Assembly: GCA_963712045.1 (NCBI GenBank)
Contig: CAVQGO010000018.1
Location: 118,591-182,590, forward strand
Source of the DNA: an uncultured Bacteroidota bacterium
Lineage (GTDB): Bacteria; Bacteroidota; Bacteroidia; Chitinophagales; Chitinophagaceae
Direction of reading: 5' to 3'
DNA: 64,000 bases
The notes below the pieces were generated by a model. It was not told where the DNA came from and ran no database searches. It saw only the letters and a list, made by a program, of their open reading frames with translations. Position numbers and translations under genes: made by a program. Shown in pieces: positions 22,188 to 64,000 of the stretch (position 1 is its first letter; the number at the start of each line of letters is the position of its first letter).

Positions 22188-23112
22188 ACCGGTCTCCGAT
22201 ATCAGGTATCTGGAAAGAAACGAAATTGACACCATCAAATGGGACAATTGTATCGTCAATGCATTCAATGGACTTATTTATGCCAGGTCATTCTACCTGG
22301 ATGCAATGGCTGAAAACTGGTCCGCTCTGGTGGCAGGAGACTATCAGTATGTAATGCCACTCACCTGGAATAAAAAAGTAGGCTTAAAGTATTTATATCA
22401 GCCCTATTTTACAAAATCACTGGGGGTATTCGGGAACAGCAGCCATTCATTTGAAATTTCCTCTTTCTTAAATGCAATACCTGAAATGTTCAGATACTGG
22501 GACATAGATCTGAATGAAAATAATTTCGTTTCTACGGATATCAGGAAATTGCGTCAACGTGCCCGCCGGAATCATTTCTTGTCTTTGGTCAACGACTACG
22601 AACATATTAGTCAGCAGTATAAAAGACTGGCAAATCGCATGACGAAAAAAGCCATTGAAGGACAGGTGCAGATTGTCCGTGGCGAAACCCCGGAACTGAT
22701 CATACAGTTATATCAACGGGATTACGCCAATAGGCATAAAAGAATCTCCGGCGCTGTTTATGAAAAATTAACGAGCTGTTCTGCATATGCATTTGATAAC
22801 AATCTGGCAGAAACATATCTGGCAAAATCCCTGTCAGGAGAAACTCTGGCATATTATATGATCCTGAAGGATGAACATTATATATATTCACTGCTCGGTG
22901 GCAGCACGAAAGAGGGAAAGCAAAAAGGGGCATTTTACCTGCTGACTGATGCCATTATCCGGGATCATGCCGGGACAAATAAAATATTTCGTTTTGAAGG
23001 TTCGGATATTCCGGGTATTTCTTTTTTTGACAACTTATTCGGACCCGAAAGAATATCATACCAGCACCTGGTTATGAATAAACTTCCTTTTTTAATCAGG
23101 TTCTTTAAATGA
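22180..23112 (+). CDS. GNAT/FemAB-like acyltransferase-domain protein
   Basis: IRYLERNEIDTIKWDNCI..., LYQPYFTKSLG, FRFEGSDIPGISFF..FG. ATG at 22180 overlaps the upstream stop. Confidence 0.75.
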   Translation: MTEPVSDIRYLERNEIDTIKWDNCIVNAFNGLIYARSFYLDAMAENWSALVAGDYQYVMPLTWNKKVGLKYLYQPYFTKSLGVFGNSSHSFEISSFLNAIPEMFRYWDIDLNENNFVSTDIRKLRQRARRNHFLSLVNDYEHISQQYKRLANRMTKKAIEGQVQIVRGETPELIIQLYQRDYANRHKRISGAVYEKLTSCSAYAFDNNLAETYLAKSLSGETLAYYMILKDEHYIYSLLGGSTKEGKQKGAFYLLTDAIIRDHAGTNKIFRFEGSDIPGISFFDNLFGPERISYQHLVMNKLPFLIRFFK

Positions 23113-28496: not shown

Positions 28497-31400
28497 CTAT
28501 TCTTCTTCATCGAACTGCAGGGCTTCCCTTGTGTTTTGGAGTAATTCATATTCCTCCTTGCTTCCCACGATCATGTTTTCAAATTCCCTCAATCCAGTAC
28601 CTGCAGGAATCGGATGTCCGGTGATAACATTCTCTTTCAATCCCATCATATTATCTGTTTTACCCTGAATAGCGGCTGAAGACAATACTTTCGTGGTTTC
28701 CTGGAATGATGCAGCTGAAATCCAGCTCTGTGTTCCCAAGGAAGCCTTGGTAATCCCCAGTAACATGGGTGCTGATGTAGCCGAATGTGCATCTCTGAAT
28801 TCTGCCAGTTTTTTATCATTGCGTCGCAAAATAGAATTTTCTTCCCTTACTTCACGCAAACTAACTATCTGACCGGGTTTCAGTTTGGCTGAATCTCCTG
28901 CATCCGTGATTACTTTCTTATCGAAGATCCAGTCGTTTTCATCGAGAAATTCAATCTTATCAACTGTTTCATCTTCAAGAAAACGGGTATCTCCGGGATC
29001 AACAATATTCAGTTTACGCATCATCTGCCGTACAATCACTTCAATGTGTTTATCATTGATCTTCACACCCTGCAAACGATATACTTCCTGGATTTCATTC
29101 ACAACATATTCCTGTACAGCAAACGGTCCCTTGATGGAAAGAATATCTGCCGGTGCTGTTTGTCCATCGGACAATTGCGCACCTGCTTTAATAAAGTCAC
29201 CATCCTGAGCCAGAATCTGGCGGGTAAGCGGAACAAGATATTTCTTTACAATACCATCTCTGGCTTCCACGATGATTTCACGGTTACCTCTTTTGATATT
29301 ACCGAAAGTCAACAACACCATCAATTTCAGAAACGACGGCCGGATTGCCTGGATTTCTTGCTTCAAACAATTCCGTTACACGTGGAAGACCACCCGTAAT
29401 ATCACGGAGTTTTCCGAGCACACGAGGAATTTTCACAATTACCTGTCCGCCGCGAACTTCTTCGCCTTCTTCCATAATGATATGGCTTCCAACCGGCAGG
29501 TTATAGTTTTTAATTTCTTTGCCACCTTCTACAACGATACCAGGAATTTTCGTTTTGTCTTTTGTATCGATAACTACTTTTTCACGATGACCCGTTTGTT
29601 CGTCGGCTTCTTCGCGGAAAGTAATTCCTTCAATAACGTTTTCAAATTTCAGTTTGCCCGTGATTTCACTAATCACCACGTTGTTGAACGGATCCCATGT
29701 ACAGATCACTTCACCCTTGGTAACCTTCTGTCCGTCTTTTACAGTCAGTGTGGCACCATAAGGAACGTTATTGGTAATCAGCAGGCGATCGTTCTTCACA
29801 TCCATGATTCTTACTTCACCGGTACGTCCGATAACGACTGGCACTTTCGCACCATCATTATTTTCGGCCATCACCGTTCTGAGTCCATCAAACTGTATGG
29901 TACCGTCGAATTTTGCCATCAGAGAAGATTCTACTGAAGCAGAACCGGCAACACCACCCACGTGGAAGGTACGCAGGGTAAGCTGTGTTCCCGGCTCACC
30001 TATCGACTGTGCAGCAATAATACCAACCGCATCACCTTTCTGCGCTGTATATCCGGTAGCAAGGTTCTTACCATAACATTTTACACACACACCACTTTTG
30101 CTTTCGCAAGTAAGTACCGAACGGATTTCTACCGTTTCAATACCTGTTTCTTCAATTCTCTTGGCAACTTCCTCTGTGATTTCGACACCACCTTCCGCAA
30201 TCAGCTGATCCGTAATCGGATCATAAATATCATGCAGGGAAACACGACCCAAAATACGATCGTACAATGGTTCAACGATATCTTCATTATCCTTCAGAGC
30301 GGTGGTTGCAATACCTCTTAATGTTCCGCAATCTTCTTCCTTGATAACCACATCCTGGGCAACATCCACGAGACGACGCGTCAGGTAACCTGCATCCGCC
30401 GTTTTCAGTGCCGTATCCGCAAGACCTTTTCGTGCACCATGCGTAGAGATAAAGTAATCCAATACATTCAGGCCGCCTTTAAAATTAGAAAGGATCGGGT
30501 TCTCAATGATTTCACTTCCTGTAGATCCGGATTTCCTTGGTTTGGCCATCAACCCTCTGATACCTGCCAGCTGTTTGATCTGCTGTTTGGATCCGCGGGC
30601 ACCGGAGTCAAGCATCATGTAAACAGAATTAAAACCCTGCTTATCAGAAGCCAGTTCACGAATCAATGTTTCTGTGATGCGTGTATCTACTCTTGACCAG
30701 ATATCTACAATCTGGTTATATCTTTCGTTATTTGTAATCAGACCCGTATTGTAATTGTCCCACACTTCATCTACTTCCACTTTTGCATTCACCAATAATT
30801 CTTCTTTGGTGTCAGGGATGATCAGGTCATTAATACTAAATGACAATCCACCGCGAAATGCCATGCGGAAACCCAGTGTTTTGATATCATCAAGGAACTT
30901 GGCTGTTTTCGGAACATTGGTCCATTTGATAATATTACCGATGATTTCGCGGAGCGATTTCTTTGTAAGCAACTGGTTTACGAACCCTACTTCGGCCGGC
31001 GTATGCTGATTGAATAGTACGCGACCGACGGTTGTTTCCAACAGCTTTTTTTCCAGTCCGTCATTTTCATTTCTGACATTTACTTTTACCTTGATATAAG
31101 CATGCAAATCAAGCTGACCTTCGTTATATGCGATAATAACCTCTTCCGGACTGTAAAAGGATTTTCCTTCACCCTTTACTTTTTCTGTTGGCGTGGATTT
31201 TTTTCCTTTTGTAATATAATACAATCCCAGTACCATGTCCTGTGAGGGCAGTGTGATGGGTGTACCATTTTGCGGGTTCAGGATGTTATGGCTTGAAAGC
31301 ATCAGTAACTGTGCTTCCAATACGGCTGCACTGCTCAATGGAACATGTACCGCCATCTGGTCACCATCAAAATCCGCGTTGAAGGATGTACATACCAATG

Positions 31401-32794
31401 GATGTAACTGGATCGCCTTCCCTTCAATGAGTTTTGGCTGAAATGCCTGGATGGAAAGACGGTGAAGAGTCGGAGCACGATTCAGCATCACAGGATGTCC
31501 TTTCAGAATATTTTCCAGGATATCCCACACGATGGCCTCTTTGCGATCAACCAGTTTTCTGGCAGACTTCACTGTTTTTACGATACCTCTTTCAATGAGT
31601 TTACGAATGATAAACGGCTTGAAAAGTTCAGCTGCCATATCTTTAGGCAATCCGCATTCGTGCAATTTCAATTCAGGACCCACCACAATAACGGAACGGC
31701 CTGAATAGTCCACACGTTTACCCAGTAAGTTCTGACGGAAACGTCCTTGTTTACCTTTCAGCACATCACTTAAAGATTTCAGCGCTCTTCCGCCTTCCGC
31801 TTTCACGGCATTGGATTTACGGCTGTTGTCAAAGAGTGAATCGATGGCTTCCTGCAGCATTCTCTTTTCATTGCGCAGGATCACTTCGGGCGCTTTGATT
31901 TCCAATAAACGCTTTAAGACGGTTATTACGGATAATCACACGACGGTAAAGATCATTCAAATCTGAAGACGCAAACCGGCCACCATCCAATGGAACCAGT
32001 GGACGCAATTCAGGAGGAATAACAGGAATATATTGCATAACCATCCATTCCGGACGGTTTGTAATTCTTGTATTGGCATCGCGGAAACTCTCTACTACGC
32101 TCAGGCGCTTCAAAGCGTCTGCTTTACGCTGTTGAGAAGTTTCGTTGGCTGCAGCTGCCCGCAGATCAAAGCTCAGCTGATCCAGATCGATTCTCTGCAG
32201 CAGATCATGCACAGCTTCTGCACCCATCTTGGCGATGAACTTTTGCGGATCGTCGTCAGGTAGATATTGATTGTCTTTCGGAAGAGTTTCAAGAATTTCA
32301 AGATATTCCTCTTCTGTCAGAAGATCACCCTGATTCTGATTTTTATCAGCACGGATTCCTGACTGGATCACGACATATCTTTCGTAATACACAATACTCT
32401 CCAGCTTCTTTGAACTCATGCCCAGCAAATAACCGGTTTTGTTCGGCAGACTTTTGAAATACCAGATATGAACCACAGGGACTACGAGTTTGATATGGCC
32501 CATGCGTTCACGACGAACTTTCTTTTCGGTTACTTCAACGCCGCAACGGTCGCACACGATCCCTTTATAACGGATCCTTTTATATTTTCCGCAGGCACAT
32601 TCATAGTCCTTCACAGGTCCGAATATGCGTTCGCAGAATAAACCATCCCTTTCGGGTTTGTAGGTTCTGTAGTTTATAGTTTCAGGCTTTAAAACCTCTC
32701 CATAGGATCTTTCCAGAATGGAATCGGGAGAAGCAAGTCCGATGGTGATTTTTGAGAAAGTGGCTTTGGGACGATTTTCTTTTTTAATAGCCAT
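28497..32794 (-). CDS. rpoC: DNA-directed RNA polymerase subunit beta' (two apparent +1 frameshifts near 31912 and 29310)
   Basis: Zn finger [60 protein letters not shown] spread over three frames. Removing one base at each junction gives [12 protein letters not shown] and [12 protein letters not shown], about 1431 aa in total. Confidence 0.98.
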
Positions 32795-50279: not shown

Positions 50280-53200
50280 ATGGAACAAAACCAGGGGTTA
50301 TATCGCCCTTCTTTTGAGCGGGATTCTTGTGGTATCGGCTTTGTAGCCAATATTAAAGGCAATAAGAGTCACCAGATCATCTCAGATGCACTCACGATCC
50401 TTGAACACATGGAACACCGGGGTGCCTGCGGCTGTGAAATTAATACCGGTGATGGTGCCGGGATTATGATCCAGACCCCGCACGAATTCTTTTTTGACGA
50501 GTGCATCCGGCTTGGTTTCCACCTGCCTGCCTATGGCAAATACGGTGTGGGAATGATATTCTTTCCAAGAGATATTATGCTCAAGGAAGAATGCCGGGAT
50601 ATTTTTAACCGCGCAGCTGAAAAACTGGGCCTTGAAGTGCTGGGTTACCGTAAAGTTCCGGTAAACCCCGACGGAATAGGACCTACTGCCCTTTCTGTTG
50701 AACCGGATATCGAACAGGTATTCATTGCCAGTCCCGACCATTTCAACGACCCTGAAGAATTTGAACGTAAGTTATTTATACTCCGGAATTATTCCAGTCA
50801 TCTCATAGAGAGCTCGGTTAAGAAAGATCCGATCGGATTTTATCTCGCTTCGCTCTCATACAAAACCGTCGTATACAAGGGCCAGCTCACGAGTAAACAG
50901 GTGCGTCATTATTTTCCCGACCTGACAAATAACCGCATCGTTTCTGCATTCGGGCTCATTCATTCCCGTTTTGCTACCAATACTTTTCCTTCCTGGAAAC
51001 TTGCACAACCCTTCCGTTACATAGCCCACAATGGTGAAATCAATACGGTTCAGGGAAACCTGAACTGGCTAAAGACCAGTGAAAAGGGATTTGAATCTCC
51101 TTACTTCACAAAAGAAGAAATGGAGATGATGCTTCCTTTGATTACAGAAGGACAGTCAGATTCTGCCTGTCTGGACAATATGATCGAACTTACTCCTGTT
51201 CTGCGGCCGCTCTCTGCCTCATGTGATGATGATGCTGATCCCTGAAGCCTGGGACGGCAATGAACAGATGGATCCTGTAAAAAAAGCATTTTACGAATAC
51301 CATGCTTCTTTAATGGAGCCCTGGGATGGACCCGCTTCGATTTCTTTTACAGACGGAAAAATGATCGGTGCTACACTCGACCGAAACGGACTGCGGCCAT
51401 CACGCTACTGTGTTACCACCGACGACCGTGTCATCATGGCTTCAGAAACCGGCGTTCTTCCCATCGACCAGAAAATCATCCGCGAAAAAGGAAGGCTTCA
51501 ACCTGGAAAAATGTTCGTGGTGGACATGGAACAGGGACGAATCATCAGCGACGATGAGATCAAGAATAAAATTTGTTCTTCCCGACCATATGCTGAATGG
51601 CTAAATAAATACAAAATCCGGCTCGAAGAATTACCGGAACCCCGGGTTACGTTTACTGAATTACAGCATGACCAGATTTTTAAATATCAGAAGGTTTTTG
51701 GTTATACCACAGAGGATGTTGAATCCATTATCACGCCGATGGCATTGGATGGCAAGGAACCCATCGGTTCCATGGGATCTGATATACCTCTTGCCGTACT
51801 CAGTGATGAGCCACAACATCTAAGCAGTTATTTCAAACAGCTATTCGCGCAGGTCACCAACCCGCCGATAGATCCGATCCGCGAACGTCTTGTCATGTCG
51901 CTGGCAACATTTGCGGGTAACAATGGAAATCTGCTGGTTGAAGATCCGCTCGCCTGTCATTGTGTGGCCCTGAAACACCCGGTACTAACAAACCACGAAC
52001 TCGAAAAAATCCGAAGTATAGATACGGGAATCTTTCAGGCAAAAACTTTACAGCTTTATTTCAGGGCAGATGAAAAACCCGGTTCCTTGCAGGCAGGTTT
52101 GGAAAGGCTTTGCCGTTATGCTGTGGATGCTGCGAAAGACGGATTTGAGGTGTTAATATTATCTGACCGGGCTATAGATTCGGATCATGCACCGATTCCA
52201 TCCCTGCTTGCAGTGGCCGCTGTTCATCATCACTTAATCAGGAAGGGATTACGCGGACAGGTAGGCATTATCGTTGAAGCGGGAGATGTTTGGGAAGTAC
52301 ACCACTATGCCTGTCTCATCGGATTCGGCGCGACTGCTATTAATCCTTATCTGGCGCTCGCAACGATACATGACGCACAGAAAACGGGCAAACTGCAAAC
52401 CAGTCTTGAACCTGAATACCTGAGGAAAAATTATGTCAAGGCTGTCAATGACGGATTGCTAAAAGTATTCTCCAAAATGGGAATCTCCACATTGCAGTCT
52501 TACCAGGGTGCACAGATATTTGAAATCATTGGATTAAACAATTCCGTGGTGGATAAATATTTTACGGGAGCAACCTCCCGTATCCAGGGAATGGGGCTGG
52601 ATGAAATTGCCCGCGAAACACTCGCTAAACATTTATTCGCATTTAGCCGGAAAGATATTCCGGTGGAACGTCTACCAACTGGTGGGGTATATCAATGGAA
52701 ACGGAAAGGAGAATTTCATCTCTTCAATCCGAACACCATTCACTATCTGCAATATTCAACTCATATGAACGATTATCTGTCGTTCAAAAAATATTCAAAG
52801 CTGGTGAATGATCAGATGGAGAAAACAGCCACCATCAGAAGTTTGTTCCAGTTTAAAAGAAACCGTCCAACCATATCAATTGAAGAAGTGGAACCGGAAG
52901 AAAGCATCATGAGAAGGTTTGCAACCGGTGCCATGAGTTTCGGATCTATTTCACATGAAGCCCATTCTACCCTGGCAATCGCCATGAATCGTATTGGCGG
53001 GAAAAGTAATACCGGCGAAGGAGGCGAAGATGAGTTCCGTTTTGAACCGTTGGCCAATGGCGACTCTATGCGATCAGCCATTAAACAAGTAGCTTCTGCG
53101 AGATTTGGTGTTACAAGCTATTACCTTACACAGGCTGATGAATTACAAATCAAAATGGCGCAGGGCGCGAAACCCGGAGAAGGTGGACAATTGCCCGGAC

Positions 53201-54798
53201 ATAAAGTAGATGAGTGGATCGGGAAAGTGAGGCATTCAACACCAGGTGTCGGACTTATTTCTCCACCCCCGCATCATGATATTTATTCAATTGAGGATCT
53301 TGCGCAGTTGATATTCGATCTGAAAAATTCAAACCGCAATGCGAGAATTAATGTAAAACTGGTTTCCAAAGCAGGTGTTGGAACGATTGCAGCAGGCGTT
53401 GCCAAAGCAAAATCGGATGTCATCCTGATTTCCGGGCACGATGGAGGCACCGGTGCATCTCCGATCAGTTCTATCCGTCATACCGGTTTACCCTGGGAAT
53501 TGGGATTGGCGGAATCTCATCAGACACTGGTGAAAAATAAATTACGCAGCCGTGTAGTTTTGCAAACCGATGGACAATTAAAAACCGGTCGTGATGTGGC
53601 CATTGCAACTTTACTGGGAGCTGAAGAATGGGGTGTAGCAACTGCTGCGCTCGTAGTCGAAGGTTGCATCATGATGCGCAAGTGTCATCTGAATACCTGT
53701 CCGGTGGGTGTTGCCACACAGGATCCCGTTTTGAGAAAACGTTTTACAGGCAATGCGGATCATGTTGTAAACCTGTTTAAATTTCTGACCCGGGAATTAC
53801 GGGAGATCATGGCTGAACTGGGCTTCCGAACCGTTGATGAAATGGTAGGCCAGGTGGAATGTCTCGAGGTTAATGATAACCTGAAACACTGGAAATCAAA
53901 AAAACTAAATCTGTCTCCGATATTATTTAAAGAACCGACTTCTATGTACACCGGTATTCATCATTCTGAAGATCAGGATCATGGTCTCGAAGATGTTCTG
54001 GATTGGCAACTGCTGGCAGCAGCCAGGCCGGCACTCGAATCGGGACAGAAAATATCTGCGGCATTTAATGTTAAGAATACCGACCGTACCATCGGCACCA
54101 TTCTGTCGAATGAAATTTCTAAACTATATAAATCGAAGGGTCTTCCCGCTGATACCATTCATTTCAAACTCAAAGGAACAGCGGGCCAGAGCTTTGGTGC
54201 ATTCAACACATCTGGCGTTACACTCGAGTTGGAAGGAGACGCGAATGATTATTTCGGAAAGGGATTGTCCGGCGCCAGGCTGGTCGTTTATCCTGCACCC
54301 GATGCAGGATTTGTTCCGGAAGAAAATTTTATCATAGGTAATGTAGCATTTTATGGAGCAACCTCAGGGGAGGCTTTTATCAGGGGTAAGGCCGGGGAAC
54401 GGTTTGCCGTTCGTAATTCCGGCGCCAATGCTGTAGTGGAAGGAATCGGAGATCACGGTTGCGAATACATGACAGGAGGCAGGGTTTTGATTCTGGGTTC
54501 TACCGGACGGAATTTTGCGGCTGGCATGAGCGGCGGAATTGCATATGTATATAATGTGGATGGAAATTTTCCATCGCTCTGCAATCCGGAAATGATTGAC
54601 CTGGATCCATTGAACGAAGAAGACATCCGGGAAATGAAAGATATGATTTCCCGCCACTATGCTTATACCGGAAGTACGGTTGCAAAATTTGTATTGGAGG
54701 ATTTTGAAAACCAGCTTCGGAATTTCGTAAAAGTGTTTCCAAAGGATTATAAAAAAGTATTGCAAGAAAAGAAGGCCCGTGTAGGCGTCAATTCCTGA
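50280..54798 (+). CDS. gltB: Glutamate synthase large subunit (one apparent +1 frameshift near 51192)
   Basis: ERDSCGIGF (N-terminal Cys amidotransferase), HSRFATNTFPSW, EPWDGPA, KMAQGAKPGEGGQLPG, CHLNTCPVGVATQ. Removing one A gives MIELLLFCGRSLPHVMMMLIPEAW. Confidence 0.97.
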
Positions 54799-54822: not shown

Positions 54823-56298
54823 ATGGGTAAACCAACAGGGTTTCTGGAGTATAACCGTGAACTGCCTTCTAAACGTCCTGTACAGGAAAGAAGAAAGGAT
54901 TACAATGAATTTGTGAATTTGTATGAACCGGAACAATTGAACAAACAGGCGGCCCGCTGTATGAACTGCGGCATTCCTTTTTGTCACCATGGATGTCCGC
55001 TTGGAAATGTGATTCCTGAATTTAACGATGCCGTATACCGCAAAGCCTGGCAGGATGCCTATGATATCCTGGTTACAACAAATAATTTCCCTGAATTTAC
55101 CGGCAGAATTTGTCCGGCTCCCTGCGAAACCAGTTGTGTGCTGGGCATCAATCAGCCTGCGGTTACCATCGAAGAGATCGAAAAGCATATAATTGAAATC
55201 GCTTTCGAAAAAGGTTTTGTAAAAGCAAAACAACCCAATATCCGAACAGGGAAAAAAATTGCTGTCGTTGGCTCAGGACCTGCCGGTCTGGCTGCCGCCG
55301 CTCAATTAAATTCGGCCGGTCATACTGTAACTGTTTTTGAAAGAGATGATGCTCCCGGTGGTTTGCTGAGATACGGTATCCCCGACTTCAAGCTGGAGAA
55401 ATGGATCATCGATCGCAGAATCAACCTGCTTGAACTGGAAGGTGTTGTGTTCCGTTGCAATACAAACGTTGGTGTGGATATCAACATCGATGAATTAAAC
55501 CGTGATTTTCATGCGATCATATTATGTGGCGGATCTACTATTCCAAGGGATCTTCCAGTACCGGGCCGGGAACTGAAAGGAACTTATTTCGCCATGGATT
55601 TTCTGAAACAACAAAATAAAAGAGTTCGTGGTGTTCCGGTATTGGAAGAAGATATTTTCGCTACCGGAAAAAATGTAATCATCATAGGAGGTGGTGATAC
55701 AGGAAGTGATTGCGTCGGAACATCAAATCGGCAGGGTGCGAAAACCATTACACAATTTGAATTGCTTCCACAGCCGCCAAAAGAAAGAACTGCATATATG
55801 CCCTGGCCAACATTCCCTATGATTTTAAAAACAACCTCATCGCACGAAGAAGGTGTTGAAAGGCAATGGGCGATGGCCACAAAGGAATTTATTAGTGATG
55901 AAAAAGGAAATCTGAAAGCGCTCAAAATTGTCCAGCTGGACTGGAAAATGGCAGATGACGGCAGGCCGGCAAAATTTGTGGAAGTACCCGGATCGGTACA
56001 AAAGATCCCCTGTGAATTAGCACTACTGGCGATGGGATTCGTACATCCCCAACAGGAAGGACTTGTGAATGAACTTGGGCTGGAACTCGATGAACGCGGC
56101 AATGTAAGGGCGGCAGAAAAATCCTATCAGACCAATATCAGGAAAATATTTGTTGCCGGCGATATGCGCAGAGGTCAGTCACTGGTCGTTTGGGCAATCA
56201 GCGAAGGCAGGGAATGTGCCCGTAAAGTAGATGAATTCCTTATGGGGTCTTCATTGCTTGAAACCAAAGATCATTCATTGATTGGAGTGACTTATTAA
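54823..56298 (+). CDS. gltD: Glutamate synthase small subunit
   Basis: MGKPTGF, RCMNCGIPFC, GRICPAPCE, GSGPAGLAAA, GDMRRGQSLVVWAI. Confidence 0.98.
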   Translation: MGKPTGFLEYNRELPSKRPVQERRKDYNEFVNLYEPEQLNKQAARCMNCGIPFCHHGCPLGNVIPEFNDAVYRKAWQDAYDILVTTNNFPEFTGRICPAPCETSCVLGINQPAVTIEEIEKHIIEIAFEKGFVKAKQPNIRTGKKIAVVGSGPAGLAAAAQLNSAGHTVTVFERDDAPGGLLRYGIPDFKLEKWIIDRRINLLELEGVVFRCNTNVGVDINIDELNRDFHAIILCGGSTIPRDLPVPGRELKGTYFAMDFLKQQNKRVRGVPVLEEDIFATGKNVIIIGGGDTGSDCVGTSNRQGAKTITQFELLPQPPKERTAYMPWPTFPMILKTTSSHEEGVERQWAMATKEFISDEKGNLKALKIVQLDWKMADDGRPAKFVEVPGSVQKIPCELALLAMGFVHPQQEGLVNELGLELDERGNVRAAEKSYQTNIRKIFVAGDMRRGQSLVVWAISEGRECARKVDEFLMGSSLLETKDHSLIGVTY

Positions 56299-56464
56299 GC
56301 TTAACGCCTAACGCCTAACGCCTAAGGCTTTTTCGGACGGATTGCACTCAGATAGCAAATAGTTGTATTAATTCAGCACCCCCGAGGTGCTTTTTTGTTT
56401 TAATAAACTTTTATCTCATTTTAATTTTAGGCTTTGGGCGTTAGGCGTTAGGCGTTAGGCTTTG
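56299..56464. repeat. Inverted pair of GCCTAAC/TTAGGCG heptamer arrays enclosing the gltD terminator
   Basis: GCTTAAC GCCTAAC GCCTAAC GCCTAAG (56299-56326) and TTAGGCT TTGGGCG TTAGGCG TTAGGCG TTAGGCT (56427-56461). Confidence 0.88.
56375..56395 (+). terminator. Intrinsic terminator after gltD
   Basis: AGCACC-CCGA-GGTGCT followed by TTTTT. Confidence 0.7.
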
Positions 56465-56501: not shown

Positions 56502-57734
56502 ATGGACTATCAACAAATGCTCAATAAAGTTGAGCAATACGCCAGAGATTCCTTTGATCATACGAATTTGAATAATCTCCTTTACCACAATCTCCGGCAC
56601 ACGGAATCTGTAGCATCTTATGCCAAGCAGATTGCCCATCATTACCAACTCGGCGAGCGTGATTATTTTATTGTGGTCGCGTCGGCATGGCTACATGATC
56701 TCGGGTATACTTTAGAAAGAGCGAATCATGAAGCAGAAGGTGCAGGGGCTGCCGGTATATTTCTGGGAAATATCGGTCTGTCAGGCACGGATATCGATTC
56801 TATAAAGGGCTGTATACTGGCAACCAAACTGCCTCAGAATCCGCATAATCTGCTTGAAGAAATAGTTTGCGATGCCGACCTCTACCACCTGGGCACTTCA
56901 CACTTCAGCGAACTCAATAAGTCAATGCGAAAAGAAGCAGAAGATGCGGGCAATACTAAAATATCGAAGGATGACTGGAGAGTAAAAACCATCAATTTCC
57001 TTGAATCGCATACATATCATACAGAATATGCAAAGTTGCTGCTGAACGACCAGAAGCAAAAAAATCTGGAAGAATTAAAGGAAAAATCCGAATCTAAATT
57101 TCAGCAGGATCTGCGTCCCAAATCATCGCTGGCCGTTGGCGAACATACGGATGACACAACGCATCATCATGAAAAACATAAAAAAGACAAGGATAAAAAT
57201 GAGCGACCCGAACGAGGAATAGAAACCATGTTCAGGGTGAGTTCCTCCAATCATCAGCGTTTGAGTGACATGGCAGATAATAAAGCGCATATCATGATCA
57301 CAGTGAATTCGATCATACTGTCAGCCGTGATCAGTTTACTATTGCGAAAACTGGATGAAAATAGCTATTTAATGATTCCGACATTTATGTTACTTGCAGC
57401 CAGTCTGATTACGATTATATTTTCTATTCTCGCAACCCGCCCCACCATTCCGAATGGAATATTTTCCAAAAAGGATATCGAAGAAAAAAAAGTAAATCTT
57501 CTATTCTTTGGTAATTTTTACCGGATGAAGCTTCCCGACTATAAAGAAGGCATGGAAAAGATGATGGCTGACAAGGACTATCTATACGGAAGCCTGATCA
57601 TGGATGGATTTGCGCAGGGAAAAGTATTGGGAAAAAAATATCAGCTGTTGCGAATCTCTTATAATGTATTTATGTTCGGATTAATCTTGTCGGTCATTGC
57701 ATTTATTATTGCATCGGCATTCTATGGAAAATAA
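56502..57734 (+). CDS. HD-domain phosphohydrolase fused to a Pycsar-type transmembrane effector domain (DUF5706/PycTM-like)
   Basis: YHNLRH (28-33), WLHD (H65 D66), HE (76-77), CDAD (D124, D126). The C-terminus has ADNKAHIMITVNSII, two TM helices, NLLFFGNF and KKYQLLR plus a third TM helix, as I recall for PycTM-family domains. Confidence 0.8.
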   Translation: MDYQQMLNKVEQYARDSFDHTNLNNLLYHNLRHTESVASYAKQIAHHYQLGERDYFIVVASAWLHDLGYTLERANHEAEGAGAAGIFLGNIGLSGTDIDSIKGCILATKLPQNPHNLLEEIVCDADLYHLGTSHFSELNKSMRKEAEDAGNTKISKDDWRVKTINFLESHTYHTEYAKLLLNDQKQKNLEELKEKSESKFQQDLRPKSSLAVGEHTDDTTHHHEKHKKDKDKNERPERGIETMFRVSSSNHQRLSDMADNKAHIMITVNSIILSAVISLLLRKLDENSYLMIPTFMLLAASLITIIFSILATRPTIPNGIFSKKDIEEKKVNLLFFGNFYRMKLPDYKEGMEKMMADKDYLYGSLIMDGFAQGKVLGKKYQLLRISYNVFMFGLILSVIAFIIASAFYGK

Positions 57735-58590
57735 CTACCCGAGCTTAATAATTTTTTTTCTCTGTACCCTGGTCGCGACCAGTTCCTGTGAAAGTCAGCA
57801 GCAACCATATACTTCACCGCCCGGCTATAATTTCAACAATCCTAAACGCTTTAAAATGCCAAATGCTCTGAGGGAAATATCGGGGATTGCATTTTATCAG
57901 GGAACCGGCGATACATTGTATGCTGAACAGGATGAAGAAGGCAAGGTATTTCGTTTTAGATTAGGCGATGCAAATATGCAGGTTACCCGGTTCGGGAAAA
58001 AAGGAGATTTCGAAGACATATCCGTCGCCAACAACATTATAATCATGTTAAGAAGTGATGGCGTATTATTTACTTTTCCAATTTCCGAAATGCAGAAAAA
58101 AGCAACGGACAATGTGAAAATATTCGAAGACCTTTTGCCGGATGGTGAATACGAAGGCCTTGCTTCAGATGGTCTGAGCAACAAATTATATGTGCTTTGC
58201 AAACATTGTCGCAACGAAAAAACAAACAAGTGGGGAGGCGGTACCATATTACAAATAGATGCTGCCGGTGTACTAACGCCAGCAGGAAATTTTGAATTGG
58301 ATATTAAGGAAATCGACGCGATTTCTCATTCACGAAAAATAAATTTTCATCCCTCCGCCCTGGCCCAAAACCCGTTAACCAAAGAATGGTACATTCTTTC
58401 CTCCGTTAATAAAATGCTGGTCGTGGCCGACCCAAACTGGAAGGTAAAATCTGTGTATCCCCTGAATCCGTCATTATTCGTGCAACCCGAAGGAATCGCC
58501 TTTGACAGGCAGCAAAATCTTTATATTTCAAATGAACGGGGATTGTCATCGGCCGCTACTATTCTCTTATTTGCCTATAATAAAAATTAA
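57724..58590 (+). CDS. SdiA-regulated/YjiK-like beta-propeller lipoprotein
   Basis: Lipoprotein signal ...LVATSS-C; repeated blades EISGIAF, QDEEG, FEDIS, YEGLA, PSALA, QPEGIAFD..LYISNE. The start overlaps the upstream stop. Confidence 0.7.
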   Translation: MENNYPSLIIFFLCTLVATSSCESQQQPYTSPPGYNFNNPKRFKMPNALREISGIAFYQGTGDTLYAEQDEEGKVFRFRLGDANMQVTRFGKKGDFEDISVANNIIIMLRSDGVLFTFPISEMQKKATDNVKIFEDLLPDGEYEGLASDGLSNKLYVLCKHCRNEKTNKWGGGTILQIDAAGVLTPAGNFELDIKEIDAISHSRKINFHPSALAQNPLTKEWYILSSVNKMLVVADPNWKVKSVYPLNPSLFVQPEGIAFDRQQNLYISNERGLSSAATILLFAYNKN

Positions 58591-58679
58591 TTCGGATCCT
58601 GTGTGAGACGCTGTAACATGAACCCGCGGTATTGTTTATGAGAGTAGCATATATTCGATTATACCGGAACAGCCGAAAA

Positions 58680-61600
58680 ATGAAATCATTCTTATACCTC
58701 TGCACAGGAATGCTGGTTATTCACGCTGCGAATGCGCAGGATTCTGTTTTGCAGAGAGTCATCATGATTGGTGATGCCGGTGAAATCGATAAGGAACAGC
58801 AGGCAGTCATCCCCGCTGCCTCTAATATGGTCATCCCCGGAAAAACTACCGTCATTTATCTGGGTGATAATATTTACCCACGGGGTATGGGTTTGCCAGG
58901 CAGCAAAGAGGAAGAAGACAACTAAAAAGATTCTGCAATCCCAGTTTAATCCGATGCGTAGTAAAGGTGCACCGGTGTATTTCATACCGGGCAACCACGA
59001 CTGGGATAAAGGGGGTAAAAACGGACTGGCTAAAATAAAACAGGAGTGGTACTACCTGGAAGAATTAAACGATTCGCTGTTGAAACTGCTGCCGCCGGAC
59101 GGATGCCCCGGCCCAACGGAAATAAATATTTCTGACGAACTGGTCATTATTGTATTTGACAGCGAGTGGTGGTTATTCCCATTTGATAAAACGAATTTGC
59201 TGGCAGAATGTAATTGCCGCACAAAGAAAGATGTAATACTGCGGATGCAGGAATTATTATATAAGAACCGAAACAAAACCATTTTCCTGGCTTCGCATCA
59301 TCCGTTCCAGAGTTACGGAACACACGGGGGATACTTTTCCTGGAAGGATCATATTTTCCCCCTGACGGCAGCCAACGAAAACCTGTACGTTCCCTTACCA
59401 ATAGTCGGTTCACTGTATCCGATCCTCAGAAAAACTTTTACAAATCCAGAGGACCTTCATCATCCACTGTACAAATCAATGATCAGACAGGTGGATGCCG
59501 TTTTTGACAGTTTTCCCAACCTGATCCATATCGCAGGTCACGAGCACGGACTTCAATTTATAAAGGGTAAACAAATTCAGGTTGTCAGTGGCTCCGGATC
59601 GCAGGAGACCTATGCGAGAAAAACAAAAAATTCTCTTTTTGCAGAATGCAAATCAGGGTTTCGTGACAGCAGATCTTCTGATAAACCGGACCGTTCGTTT
59701 TACATTTTATGAGTACAGGGAAAGTGGCATCGCACCCGTATTCACCTACCGCCAGCCTTACACAGAAATGACTTTTAAAGAAGATTCTGTATATGCTGCC
59801 AGTTTGGAGGACAGTGTCATCAGGAGTGTTCATCCGAGATATGATTATCCCGGAAAATTTCATCGGAAATTATTCGGGGAAAACTATCGCAAGGAATGGG
59901 CCAGGCCGACCAAATTACCCCTGATAAAAATATCCAATTTCCATGGTGGTTTAATACCCCTGCAACGGGGCGGTGGTATGCAATCGAATTCTTTGCGGCT
60001 GGTAGACAGTTCCGGAAATGAATGGGTGATCCGAAGTGTTGAGAAAACGGTTGATTTGTTATTGCCCGAAGCGCTGAGAAGTACTTTCGCCAGGGATTTT
60101 CTGGATGACGTAACCAGCGGTCAGCACCCGTTTTCCGCATTATCGGTGCCTCCGATTGCCGATGCAGTAAAAGTTCCGCATGCCAACCCGGAAATCGGTG
60201 TTATCGCACCTGATAAAAATCTGGGACTATATGAAAGGTATTTTGTAAATACCATTTGCCTTATTGAAGAACGGGAACCTGGTGGAAAATCGGATAACAC
60301 TGGTAAAATGCTGAGTAATCTGGATAAGGATAACGATAATTCAATAAAAGGAAAAGAATTTCAAAGGGCAAGGATGCTGGACATGTTTCTCGGCGACTGG
60401 GATCGACATGAGGACCAATGGAGATGGCATAATACGGACACCGGAAAAGACAAACGATATGAGGCCATTCCCCGTGACCGCGACCAGGTATTCCATATTA
60501 CACAGGGATTACTTCCCAAACTGGCCGCTAGTCCTTATATACTTCCTACTCTTCAGAATTTTAGTGGAAAAGTGGAACATCCGGAGTACTCCGTATTCAA
60601 ATCCCGCTTCCTGAATGCCTATCCCGATATGCAATTCGATTATGAGGACTGGATGAAAATGACTTACCGGTTTAAGGATGATATGACAGACAGTGTACTG
60701 GAAGCTGCATTGCGACGATTGCCAGCCGAGTCATATAAACTGCGACACAAAGAATTATTAACTGAATTGCAGCACCGGCGTGAAGATATGCCCCGTGCGA
60801 TGGAGTACTACTATAAGTTCATCAATAAAATTGCAGACATCAAACTGAGTGATAAGAATGAATGGGTCAATATTCAGGGCACTGCAGATGGTTCGATGCG
60901 CGTGTCCGTCCGAAAAATCAATAAAGATGGAGAAGCGAAAGGTGAACTGATGGACAAGACATTCCAAGCCGGACTGACAAAGGAAATCAGGATTTATACA
61001 GGCGATGGGGACGACAGTGTATCCATTGAAAACAAAACCTCTTCGATAGGCATCCGAATCATCGGACGGGACGGAAGGAAGGTTTACCGGGTTGAAGACT
61101 CGAAAAAAAGAATAAAACTCTATGATAAAGCGGATCCCGTTTTTTATGATGACAGCAACCGATTCATAAAATATATTTCTACCGATACCGCAAATACAAC
61201 ATTTGTACCCGTGAATTTGTATAATGTTACGATGCCTTTGTTAAATATTGCCATAAATCGGGATGACGGTTTGCTGATTGGCGCGGGATATGTACATACG
61301 GCACAGGAGGGTTTTCGTAAATCCCCCTTTGCCAGCCAATATCAGATCATGGTAAATCATTCGTTTTCAACCAGTGCATTCAGTGCAAGCTATAAGGGAG
61401 AATGGACTTCTGTGTGGGGAAAGGCCGATCTGACTCTGCAGGCTTTTGCTTATGCTCCTCAGAATACCCAGAATTTTTTTGGCAGCGGAAATGAAACGGT
61501 TATTAATAAAGCCGGCGACTACAAAACATACTATCGCACACGTTTCAACCTTTATCAGGCGCTCCCTGCACTTCGCTGGAATTTCAATGGGGGACGAAAC

Positions 61601-62287
61601 AGTTTCAGCATGGGCCCTGCGATTCAATATTATCATTTTACGCCGGGCGACAATGAAGGAAGATTTATTCTGCAGCCAGGAGCTGTGAACACCTATGACA
61701 GTAACAGCCTGGGAAGCGACCGCGTCCATGCGGGTATTATATTTAATTATAATCAGGATCTTCGCAATAGTAAACTGATCCCAACCTGGGGCTCTTCGAT
61801 ATCAGTTCAAATGGCCGCATGGCAGGGATTAAATACAGCTTCAAAATCTTATGGACAACTAAAAGCGAGTGTTGCGCTTTTCAAAAGTCTGAACGACCGT
61901 TCCACATTGATATTGGCAGACCGCGTGGGAGGTACTGTGACTGTAGGAAATCCTGCTTTTTATCAGACGGCATATTTAGGCGGACAAGGAAATTTGCTGG
62001 GTTATTCCCAATATCGTTTTTCAGGTCTGAACAGCGTCTTCAATAATCTTGAATTGAGATTAAAGCTCGCAGATTTTGCAAACTATATTTTGCCGGGTCA
62101 ACTGGGGATATTTGCATTTTACGATATCGGACGGGTTTGGGAAAAAAATGACTATTCCCAGCAGTGGCATAACGGAACCGGCATCGGATTGTATTTTTCA
62201 CCCGCACAAATGGCAGTCATACAAATCGTAGCTGCACATTCTGTAGAGGGTTGGTATCCTTATTTTTCTTTAGGGTTCAGATTTTAA
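58680..62287 (+). CDS. Metallophosphoesterase + kinase-like domain + Omp85 (BamA/TamA-like) barrel fusion, about 1200 aa (two apparent +1 frameshifts near 58920 and 59648)
   Basis: Signal peptide; GDAG, GDN, GNHD, SHH, GHEH calcineurin-like motifs; middle GGGMQS...GDWDRHEDQW...PRDRDQ; C-terminal beta strands with YRFSG and NNLELR, ending YPYFSLGFRF. Single-A removals join the three ORFs. Confidence 0.82.
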
Positions 62288-62293
62288 GAGATT

Positions 62294-64000
62294 ATGAAAG
62301 CAGATTTAATACATATCAGCAAAAAGATTGACTTTGAAAACAGTTTCAAGTCTGTGATCTCATTTAAAAAATTTATTGACTTTTTAAAGTCAAGTATTCA
62401 GTCTGGGCCATCCATCAAAATTCCTTACTTTAAATGGATCATAAAGAAGTTCAAAAAATTTCCAGAACTCTCAAACAATGTTCCGCTTGAAAAACTGAGC
62501 GAATATGAAGAGATGCTGGAACTGGTTTCTACCTGCCTCCTGCCCCTGGCGGCCGACGAGAATAGTTTATGGGCGCTCAGCAGTCCGCTATCCCCGCAAA
62601 TATTTTACAGCACCGACGGATTTCATAAGTTAATGGGGCATCTTGAACACCCGGTTGTACTGGATCCCGCAAAAGGAAATGCGGATAGTGAATCTGAAAA
62701 AATCATGAGAGAATTACAGTACGGCATGTTGCTTGAAAAAGTATATTCCTTACCGTATTTAAAGAAGACCGAATGGATCCGGAAGTTTGAAGATCCGGAT
62801 ACGGGGCTGGATAAATATTTCCAGGTACATATCGACACACGTTTTATCGATATCCGGCCCATTAATCAATTACCGGCAATGGATTGCTCTTCCATGTCGC
62901 CTGCCTCTGTATGGGGGGAAGAATTCAAAAAAATACAAAAGTCGATTCAACTGAACCAATTCGAAGCGAGGGGATTCAGTATTATTACACTGATCGATGT
63001 AACGGCGGAGCAAGCCGTTGAACAGCTTGGAAAGCTCGTGATCCATCATTCTGAAAAGGATAAACGTCCGTTATTTGAGGATATTACACATGCTCTGCAA
63101 ACCGTGGTCGGCAGCAGAGATTACCAATTCGGACTTGTTCCCTTCCTTTCAATTAATGATCGTCCCGCATTGATTTTTGACAAAATTCCATATAGTATCA
63201 TTCTGCAGGCCTGCAGGAACTTCGATGTTTCAAAAAAAGAATTTTCTAAACTCAGGAATGATTTTACACTCAATCCAAGAATGATTATTTGGACAGCGAC
63301 TGACAAGGAAAGCCAATTGCCCGAATTTGTGGGAAATGCTTTCCGGCAGACAGGAATCGGTACATATATAATGTTTCCGATTTTTCACAATGAACAGGTT
63401 ACCGGATTTTTCGAAGTCAGCACTATGGCGGATAATTCCATGTTGAGTGAGGGTCAGATGGTGCGACTGAAACCTGTTCTTTCTATCATGACGCAGCTGA
63501 TACAGGATATCATTGCACGTTTTAACCATAGCATAGAAAATATCATAAAAGAAAAATTTACCAGTATACAACCCGCGGTTCAATGGAAATTCAATGAGGC
63601 AGCCTGGCACTATCTCAGGGATCATAGTAATGAAGAAGAAGTAGAAACGGTAGAAAATATAATTTTTAAAAATCTACACCCGCTATATGGAGCTGTGGAT
63701 ATCAGAAATTCTACCATTCTCCGCAATCAGGCTCTGGAAAAGGATTACACTATTCAGCTCGGGACTTTAATCAATGCACTGTCTTCCCTCAATTACTACG
63801 AAAAACCACAACTGGATCGTCTCCTGACAACGGCCAATAATTGGCAGCAGATCATTCAGGAAACTTTAACGACACAACAGGATGTCAGGCTGAATGAATT
63901 TTTTAATCTGGACGTTCAATATGAACTTGAAAATCTTCTGCATGCTGAACCTGAAACGACCGAATTCCTGATACCTTACTTCCAATCAATTGATGAGGAA
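62294..64000 (+). CDS. GAF-domain protein with a cyclase-like motif (3' end outside window)
   Basis: ATG at 62294, open to the right edge (569 codons). GAF-type hairpin GIGTYIMFPIFHNEQVTGFFEV (63353-63418), then EKFTSIQPAVQWKF and LYGAVDIRNST. Confidence 0.75.
   Translation, partial: MKADLIHISKKIDFENSFKSVISFKKFIDFLKSSIQSGPSIKIPYFKWIIKKFKKFPELSNNVPLEKLSEYEEMLELVSTCLLPLAADENSLWALSSPLSPQIFYSTDGFHKLMGHLEHPVVLDPAKGNADSESEKIMRELQYGMLLEKVYSLPYLKKTEWIRKFEDPDTGLDKYFQVHIDTRFIDIRPINQLPAMDCSSMSPASVWGEEFKKIQKSIQLNQFEARGFSIITLIDVTAEQAVEQLGKLVIHHSEKDKRPLFEDITHALQTVVGSRDYQFGLVPFLSINDRPALIFDKIPYSIILQACRNFDVSKKEFSKLRNDFTLNPRMIIWTATDKESQLPEFVGNAFRQTGIGTYIMFPIFHNEQVTGFFEVSTMADNSMLSEGQMVRLKPVLSIMTQLIQDIIARFNHSIENIIKEKFTSIQPAVQWKFNEAAWHYLRDHSNEEEVETVENIIFKNLHPLYGAVDIRNSTILRNQALEKDYTIQLGTLINALSSLNYYEKPQLDRLLTTANNWQQIIQETLTTQQDVRLNEFFNLDVQYELENLLHAEPETTEFLIPYFQSIDEE

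Follow-up and report, generated by a model that had tools for sequence, protein, structure and literature searches.

Within a 64,000-nucleotide stretch of DNA from an uncultured bacterium of the Chitinophagaceae (contig CAVQGO010000018.1, positions 118,591 to 182,590; hereafter the window), four consecutive genes, here named G1 to G4, represent this genome's version of a chromosomal operon that is conserved among Bacteroidota of soil and rhizosphere and usually also contains ppk1. The set is an undescribed combination of known domain types, widely conserved and linked to ppk1: an HD hydrolase on a PycTM-type membrane module (G1), a predicted propeller lipoprotein (G2), phosphatase-like and predicted kinase-like domains on an Omp85-family barrel (G3), and predicted GAF-like domains followed by a plausibly cyclase-like palm (G4). 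In the literature we found no description of the cluster, of HD-PycTM proteins, or of ppk1 neighbourhoods of this kind, in agreement with an earlier interpretation of this DNA (the sequence-only reading), which knew of no described function for the set. Our favoured, though tentative, interpretation is that the operon may constitute an envelope-spanning module of phosphate and polyphosphate economy that includes a candidate nucleotide-signaling pair, G4 and G1.

Conservation of the Operon and Linkage to ppk1

Conservation was assessed on 83 loci anchored on G1, which comprise 80 genome loci retrieved with a G1 profile, two closer relatives (L081 and L082) and the window itself. The loci cover the Chitinophagales, Sphingobacteriales and Cytophagales, with genomes of Mucilaginibacter, Pedobacter, Dyadobacter, Niastella, Ferruginibacter, Puia, Arachidicoccus, Olivibacter and others, and gene families were defined by all-against-all clustering of their open reading frames (ORFs). 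Only five families are conserved, namely G1 (83/83 loci), G3 (71/83), G2 (69/83), G4 (68/83) and ppk1 (63/83); the next commonest, a PAP2 phosphatase, reaches 16/83. Because only these five are kept and the next is found in so few loci, the genes co-occur far beyond chance, and the neighborhood survey proposed by the sequence-only reading thereby finds the set conserved across three orders of Bacteroidota. The fifth gene encodes a true PPK1 of 680 amino acids (aa; TIGR03705, 1.3e-201). Only a few bases separate it from G1 on one side and from G2 on the other, and the tightly spaced order G1-ppk1-G2-G3-G4 is the commonest; in the variants of this order G4 has moved, ppk1 has dropped out, a short G3 lacks the phosphatase, or the phosphatase is present as a separate gene. 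The reverse test was anchored on G4 in 80 metagenome loci, 39 of which extend at least 6 kb upstream; these 39 contain G1 in 28 cases, G2 in 30, G3 in about 30 and PPK1 in 17.

The PAP2-family gene, which encodes a membrane phosphatase, is positioned within or adjoining the cluster in its 16 loci (L002, 14200-14829; L007, 9270-9881; and 14 others).

A PPK1 gene directly beside a phosphohydrolase gene, as in 63 of the 83 loci, recalls the ppk-ppx operon of the Escherichia coli type. Here, however, the neighbor is an HD-domain membrane protein and not a Ppx/GppA-family enzyme, no locus has a PPX homologue within 10 kb, and the cluster of the window lacks ppk1. With E. coli PPX as the query, no homologue was found in the window or in 162 loci (within 10 kb), as opposed to 84 for the E. 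coli PPK query. Of the two genes whose presence the sequence-only reading had suggested checking, ppk1 thus joins the set and ppx does not, and identity with an E. coli-type ppk-ppx operon was rejected.

In the window all four genes are encoded on the + strand, with an 11-nt overlap between G1 and G2, an 89-nt gap between G2 and G3 and a 6-nt gap between G3 and G4, exactly as first read. Their GC content is uniform with that of the flanks. Co-transcription was not demonstrated by the RNA runs, whose reads were too thin or ambiguous. Since a terminator-like hairpin separates gltD from G1, the four genes can be regarded as a unit apart from gltBD. The sequence-only reading had placed them in the core genome beside gltBD and not in a defence island; the ordinary chromosomal context stands, but the adjacency to gltBD is restricted to the window's lineage, where the ilv-gltBD synteny is stable, and is absent in 80/80 more distant loci. 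As a lineage-specific feature, it was rejected as functionally meaningful.

Domain Architecture of the Encoded Proteins

G1 (56502-57734, 410 aa) is an inner-membrane HD-PycTM protein, and both domains had been recognized correctly from the beginning. Its C-terminal 160 aa match the Pfam PycTM model (PF18967) over the full model length at 1.7e-31. This membrane module (aa ~247-406, hydrophobic helices at 262-284, 288-316 and 382-410) also matches the PADLOC PycTM model (5.8e-15) and CBASS 2TM effector models, all of which span essentially the entire length of those small effectors. Judged by these profile matches, the module is truly homologous to the Pycsar PycTM and CBASS 2TM effectors. The N-terminal HD phosphohydrolase domain (aa 31-129, motifs YHNLRHT, LHDLGY and CDADLYHLG) reaches 23.6 bits with Pfam HD when isolated, versus a cutoff of 22; its metal ligands H33, H65-D66 and D124 are invariant among 16 homologues, and weak PDB matches connect it to YedJ and 2pq7. 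Hydropathy indicates three helices and places both the HD domain and a 70-aa loop of high conservation on the cytoplasmic side. The family is very large and uniform (>6000 relatives) and is publicly annotated by NCBI as 'Pycsar system effector family protein'; no record was found for the exact sequence of G1 itself.

In G1, the linker that joins the HD domain to the membrane module (window positions 57090-57200, aa ~197-232) is rich in His, Lys, Asp and Glu (…HTDDTTHHHEKHKKDKDKNERPER). Its length varies among homologues and its charge is always kept. That it might bind a polyanion such as polyphosphate is pure speculation.

G4 (62294-64000) runs off the window, which holds the first 569 of its ~797 residues. 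Hydropathy gives no transmembrane segment and hence a cytoplasmic location. The relatives, 797 aa long, carry no Pfam domain and are publicly annotated as 'GAF domain-containing protein' or 'hypothetical'. An AF2 model (pLDDT 84) predicts two GAF/PAS-like domains, the second at ~aa 223-380 (nt 62960-63433), followed by a long helix or coiled coil and a C-terminal alpha/beta palm domain. The palm begins at a strand ending in the DIRNST motif already noticed by the sequence-only reading, here located at 63698-63715, and the rest of it lies beyond the window. The GAF assignment made at the same time is supported by the predicted structure and not by sequence, as the Pfam GAF_2 match is non-significant (E 0.01-0.05). 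Foldseek searches with the model retrieve DosP, GAF domains, a phytochrome-adenylate/guanylate cyclase and soluble guanylate cyclases (among the matches are 6fht and 6jt0/8hbe), the full-length cyclases with E values down to 1e-6. Aligned with the cyclase-only chain 2w01 (Cya2), the full model gives a target-normalised TM score of 0.48-0.52 over 206-215 columns, and the strand and helix order of the palm (DSSP) agrees with that of a class III cyclase domain. The invariant residues D469 (in DIRNST), K612/D616 (KFRTDG) and N699/R701 (GAYNIR) are, in a mapping of positions by eye, candidates for the two metal-binding Asp residues, the substrate Lys and the catalytic (transition-state) Asn/Arg of cyclases.

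A cyclase-like palm fold is therefore a plausible description of the modeled C-terminus. The predicted order of sensor, long helix and palm is shared with GAF-regulated class III cyclases (CyaB1/CyaB2), soluble guanylate cyclase and phytochrome-cyclase fusions. In contrast to these proteins, G4 lacks sequence-profile similarity to class III cyclases and has a helical insertion of ~130 aa between the first strand/helix and the second strand. Its family is large and uniform in length (1164 representatives at 50% identity), and in a search of the C-terminus against 1.84 billion representatives the best 150 matches were all family members of the same architecture, with no bridge to an annotated family.

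G3 (58680-62287, ~1201 aa in relatives) is an outer-membrane protein in which the combination of phosphatase, kinase and Omp85 domains proposed before is recovered, the outer two by Pfam (Metallophos and Omp85) and the middle one by structure search. A signal peptide (58680-58739) precedes an N-terminal purple-acid-phosphatase-like metallophosphoesterase domain (58740-59640), which is recognized by Pfam Metallophos and contains five of the five signature blocks (GDxG/GDxxY/GNH(D/E)/xxxH/GHxH), here GDAGE, GDNIY, GNHD, SHHP and GHEH. PDB profile matches extend to purple acid phosphatases and TRAP (to 5.7e-5). The middle domain (59816-60838) has a PI3/4-kinase-like (protein-kinase-like) fold in the predicted structure (AF2 model, pLDDT 81.5). 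Foldseek was run against a viral structure library (BFVD), since BamA barrels swamped the PDB search; the top match is a PI3/4-kinase catalytic-domain protein (E 5.6e-7, probability 1.0, 321 columns), and several Ser/Thr kinases match more weakly. No Pfam model, PI3_PI4_kinase included, matches this domain. Its invariant motifs are GDWDRHEDQ (60392-60418) and PRDRDQ (60470-60487): compared with the kinase catalytic loop DRHxxN and the metal-binding DFG, G3 has an invariant DRHEDQ, in which Gln replaces Asn, and DRDQ. Adoption of a kinase fold by the middle domain is thus supported by the model. An all-beta linker domain (60830-61174, DSSP of the model) leads to the C-terminal Omp85-family beta-barrel (61226-62284), which has 16 strands in the model. 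The barrel matches Pfam Omp85 at 3.7e-8 (9.6e-12 in L001) as well as NCBIfam Omp85_fam, and Foldseek aligns it with Sam50/BamA barrels (E ~1e-9). The public annotation is 'BamA/TamA family outer membrane protein'.

A C-terminal 16-strand Omp85 barrel after enzyme domains resembles the type Vd autotransporter PlpD and the BamA/TamA family. G3 differs from these in that the Pfam search detected no POTRA domain, the pre-barrel segment being all-beta in the model, and in that its enzyme domains are phosphatase-like and kinase-like instead of a patatin lipase. In loci L008 (14166-15260 and 17669-20248) and L026 (7939-9057 and 11463-14045), the metallophosphoesterase is a separate gene, and G4 is located between this gene and a short G3 that consists of the kinase-like domain and the barrel; others, such as L007 and L009, have the short G3 alone. 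Because the phosphatase is either fused to the barrel protein or, as in L008 and L026, separate, this pattern of fusion and fission suggests that the two are linked.

G2 (57724-58590, start ATG at 57724, 288 aa) matches PF06977 ('SdiA-regulated') at 2.9e-6, with 27.1 bits versus a Pfam gathering cutoff of 21, and its N-terminus carries a lipobox (...ATSSC) that predicts a lipoprotein. By its sequence it is a YjiK/CarP-type beta-propeller, and the propeller lipoprotein of the sequence-only reading is thereby confirmed. The characterised member of this family is CarP, a Ca2+-regulated propeller that influences Ca2+ homeostasis (PMC10574481). G2 resembles CarP and YjiK in scoring above the gathering threshold of their family, and differs from them as a lipoprotein within a ppk1-linked operon. 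We know of no link between G2 and CarSR or SdiA.

Integrity of G3 in the Window

The sequence-only reading treated G3 as a continuous gene, which does not hold for the window as assembled, where it is spread over three frames (58680-58925, ~58921-59712 and 59582-62287). Two single extra bases, at 58917-58920 and at 59644-59647, cause the shifts. In order to align these sites we used the close relatives L081 (88% DNA identity) and L082 (95%), both Nanopore-style contigs, in which G3 is intact with 1215 aa and 1201 aa, respectively. Both bases are missing in these relatives, and near-identical contigs from five independent public runs each lack one base at both sites.

Other genes of the window are split as well. 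The essential rpoC, encoding the beta' subunit of RNA polymerase (29299-32794, - strand), is broken up into two or more overlapping ORFs that lie in different frames (31868-32794 and 29299-31905). On the + strand, gltB (50280-54798) is broken into 50280-51245 and 51223-54798, with one extra base at ~51192 relative to L081, where it is a single gene of 1505 aa. An indel may also have split a further gene at 19491-23112 (+), where two ORFs in different frames overlap: 19491-22187, with a weak Peptidase_M1 match, and 22105-23112.

Since the relatives and the five runs lack both bases, and since rpoC and gltB are also split, the breaks in G3 are, on this sequence comparison, almost certainly assembly errors and not biology, and G3 is treated here as one gene. 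One could instead envisage that the locus is decaying in this genome, with G3 a true pseudogene, ppk1 lost and the module non-functional. The two frameshifts and the lack of ppk1 in the cluster and the window would fit such a scenario. We nevertheless consider decay improbable in view of the split rpoC and gltB and of the extra bases, which L081, L082 and the five runs lack, and relatives without an in-cluster ppk1 keep all four genes intact. The pseudogene interpretation of G3 was rejected.

A Possible Phosphate and Polyphosphate Module of the Envelope

We tentatively interpret the operon in terms of phosphate and polyphosphate because phosphate chemistry is common to its conserved partners, on either side of the envelope. 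In the cytoplasm and inner membrane these are PPK1 and the HD hydrolase; outside they are the purple-acid-phosphatase-like and kinase-like domains, the CarP-type propeller and sometimes PAP2. The enzymatic activities are all inferred, as are a signal and its identity, the outer-membrane substrate and the facing of the G3 domains towards periplasm or surface. At the outer membrane, the phosphatase-like and PI3/4-kinase-like domains of G3 would be tethered to the Omp85 barrel and would work together with the G2 propeller, plus PAP2 in some genomes, on extracytoplasmic phosphate esters or anhydrides. In the cytoplasm, PPK1 would store phosphate as polyphosphate. G4, as a tandem-GAF sensor with a cyclase-like palm, might make a nucleotide signal that G1 receives and/or destroys; this role of G1 is suggested by the homology of its membrane module to 2TM effectors that cyclic nucleotides trigger, and by the cytoplasmic position of the HD domain. 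The G1-G4 pair could in this manner couple the envelope arm to PPK1. As an alternative or in addition, the HD domain of G1 may hydrolyse polyphosphate and so take the place that ppx holds beside ppk elsewhere. We speculate that polyphosphate might even serve as the phosphate donor for the kinase-like domain.

Bacteroidota dominate the turnover of organic phosphorus in soil and rhizosphere. What is understood of polyphosphate regulation comes mainly from Proteobacteria (ppk-ppx, ppGpp), and next to nothing is known of it in Bacteroidota. The operon offers candidates for this regulation in the HD membrane protein at the usual place of ppx and in a possible divergent nucleotide cyclase, as well as a candidate phosphatase-like/kinase-like enzyme of the outer membrane, a compartment without ATP. 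A precedent within the phylum comes from Flavobacterium johnsoniae, in which phosphate depletion causes strong induction of a ppk-like gene that belongs to an outer-membrane protein cluster (PMC8115612). This cluster, PUSIII with the ppk-like Fjoh_3851, shares with the present operon a PPK-family gene beside outer-membrane proteins, lipoproteins and phosphatase-type genes; it differs by a TonB-dependent transporter, a FecR/sigma factor and substrates of the type IX secretion system, and neither HD-PycTM, nor the Omp85 fusion, nor the GAF-palm protein is reported there (PMC8115612).

Several results weigh against this interpretation. The polyphosphate arm is weakened by the absence of ppk1 from the window's cluster, from the whole 64 kb and from the clusters of L081 and L082, and more generally from about a quarter of the G1-anchored and over half of the G4-anchored loci. 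Upstream of G1, an 8-mer enrichment over 78 loci gave AT-rich words only, with no candidate operator and no Pho-box-like motif. To our knowledge, a kinase-like domain outside the cytoplasm would have no obvious phosphate donor. The signaling arm is affected in its receiver, as G1 contains no known domain for binding cyclic nucleotide monophosphates or other nucleotides, and particularly in its writer. The cyclase fold that the sequence-only reading sought in full-length G4 appears as a sensor/coiled-coil/cyclase-like architecture by Foldseek, but sequence gives no cyclase match: Pfam cyclase models are absent on the full length, and on 10 C-terminal sequences with the insertion deleted at E<=10 (PF00211); PDB profile searches found no cyclase; and PADLOC gave no match at E<=1, PycC included. 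HHalign against 11 annotated class III cyclases, which were retrieved from plasmids with a consensus bait, returned probabilities of 0.5-1.2%, although the best of these alignments is collinear. A ferredoxin-like palm fold is, moreover, common. Finally, L126, L133 and L134 carry G4 homologues (~35% identity) without partner genes within 10 kb on either side.

Relation to Pycsar and CBASS Systems and to Envelope Remodelling

The sequence-only reading had proposed a housekeeping relative of Pycsar. What remains of this proposal is the homology of the G1 membrane module, which matches the PycTM and CBASS 2TM models end to end; G4 does not match PycC, and the strongest context is that of polyphosphate and phosphate chemistry (PPK1, the purple-acid-phosphatase-like domain and PAP2) and not of nucleotide signaling. 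In contrast to Pycsar and CBASS, G1 carries an additional N-terminal HD hydrolase and its partner G4 is not recognized as PycC or as a CD-NTase; the genes also keep company with ppk1 and envelope enzymes in a conserved operon of housekeeping type, not in a two-gene cassette of a defence island. G1-G4 is not a Pycsar system: the two have no more than the effector membrane module in common, the cyclase test fails, and the genes are distributed in the manner of a housekeeping operon. The kinship is limited to one domain of one protein. A narrow form of the proposal would be a housekeeping pathway of the Pycsar type, in which G4 is the writer of a cyclic (pyrimidine) nucleotide, G1 is both its reader, via PycTM, and its eraser, via HD, and the envelope genes are outputs. 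Homology over the whole effector length, the cyclase-like architecture of G4 in structure searches and the co-occurrence of G1 and G4 in both anchoring directions are in line with it. We nonetheless regard it as unlikely, given that G4 matches no PycC or class III cyclase model (HHalign probability ~1%), that nothing points to cyclic pyrimidines, and that the G1-G4 pair is insufficient by itself, with G2, G3 and ppk1 as strongly conserved as G4. Genuine anti-phage defence, by a variant of Pycsar or CBASS whose membrane effector acts through abortive infection, could call upon the same effector homology and the NCBI family name. This is highly improbable. The gene order is kept at ordinary chromosomal sites in all three orders, synteny is stable in the lineage of the window, and GC content does not depart from that of the flanks. 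The set is also tied to ppk1 and to enzymes of the envelope, G2, G3 and G4 have no PADLOC match, and the G1 family is very large and uniform, as described above. The defence reading was rejected.

A different use of the same phosphate chemistry would be the remodelling of the envelope, with the phosphatase, the kinase-like domain, PAP2 and the propeller adding or removing phosphates on lipid A, lipopolysaccharide (LPS) or other outer-membrane components, and with PPK1 and G1 supplying or regulating the donor. Lipid A phosphatases and the periplasmic phosphotransferase LpxT belong to the PAP2 family, and the PAP2 enzymes of the 16 loci, the anchoring of G3 in the outer membrane by its barrel and the invariance of its kinase-like active-site motifs would all suit such a function. 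On the other hand, genes of lipid A or LPS biosynthesis are not among the conserved neighbors, PAP2 is present in a minority of loci only, and we know of no transport route for polyphosphate, all of which makes this possibility rather doubtful.

Returning to the phosphate and polyphosphate interpretation, its signaling component could be taken one step further. Soil Bacteroidota might run a housekeeping second-messenger pathway assembled from Pycsar/CBASS parts, with a divergent GAF-regulated cyclase as writer and a 2TM-HD reader/eraser that control PPK1 and the phosphatase/kinase-like enzyme of the outer membrane, possibly with polyphosphate as substrate or donor. We see this as a speculative and, at present, unlikely extension. 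If this is true, defence effectors would either have arisen from such a pathway or have given rise to it by domestication. The label 'Pycsar system effector' on thousands of proteins covers a large housekeeping family, and its breadth matters for censuses of defence systems and for ideas on the origin of immune effectors.

Operon Boundary and Neighboring Features

Downstream, in the window's lineage, a gene for a xylose-isomerase-like TIM-barrel protein (AP_endonuc_2) follows 15 nt after G4 (L081, 18198-19112; L082, 12410-13324). Its position is just past the end of the window, and it is not kept in other lineages.

Upstream, the operon boundary (56297-56462, no strand assigned) consists of two 32-nt inverted-repeat arms around the terminator-like hairpin, which with its T-run occupies 56375-56391 in the interval between gltD and G1. 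The arms (56297-56328 and 56431-56462) are built of (TAACGCC)n and (GGCGTTA)n heptamers in three to four copies. The heptamer pattern has 8 matches in the window versus 0.19 expected, and outside the arms a single weak match with 2 mismatches (422-435) is found in the whole window. Because similar heptamer arrays are joined to unrelated sequence in contigs from other runs, the array may be a dispersed repeat element.

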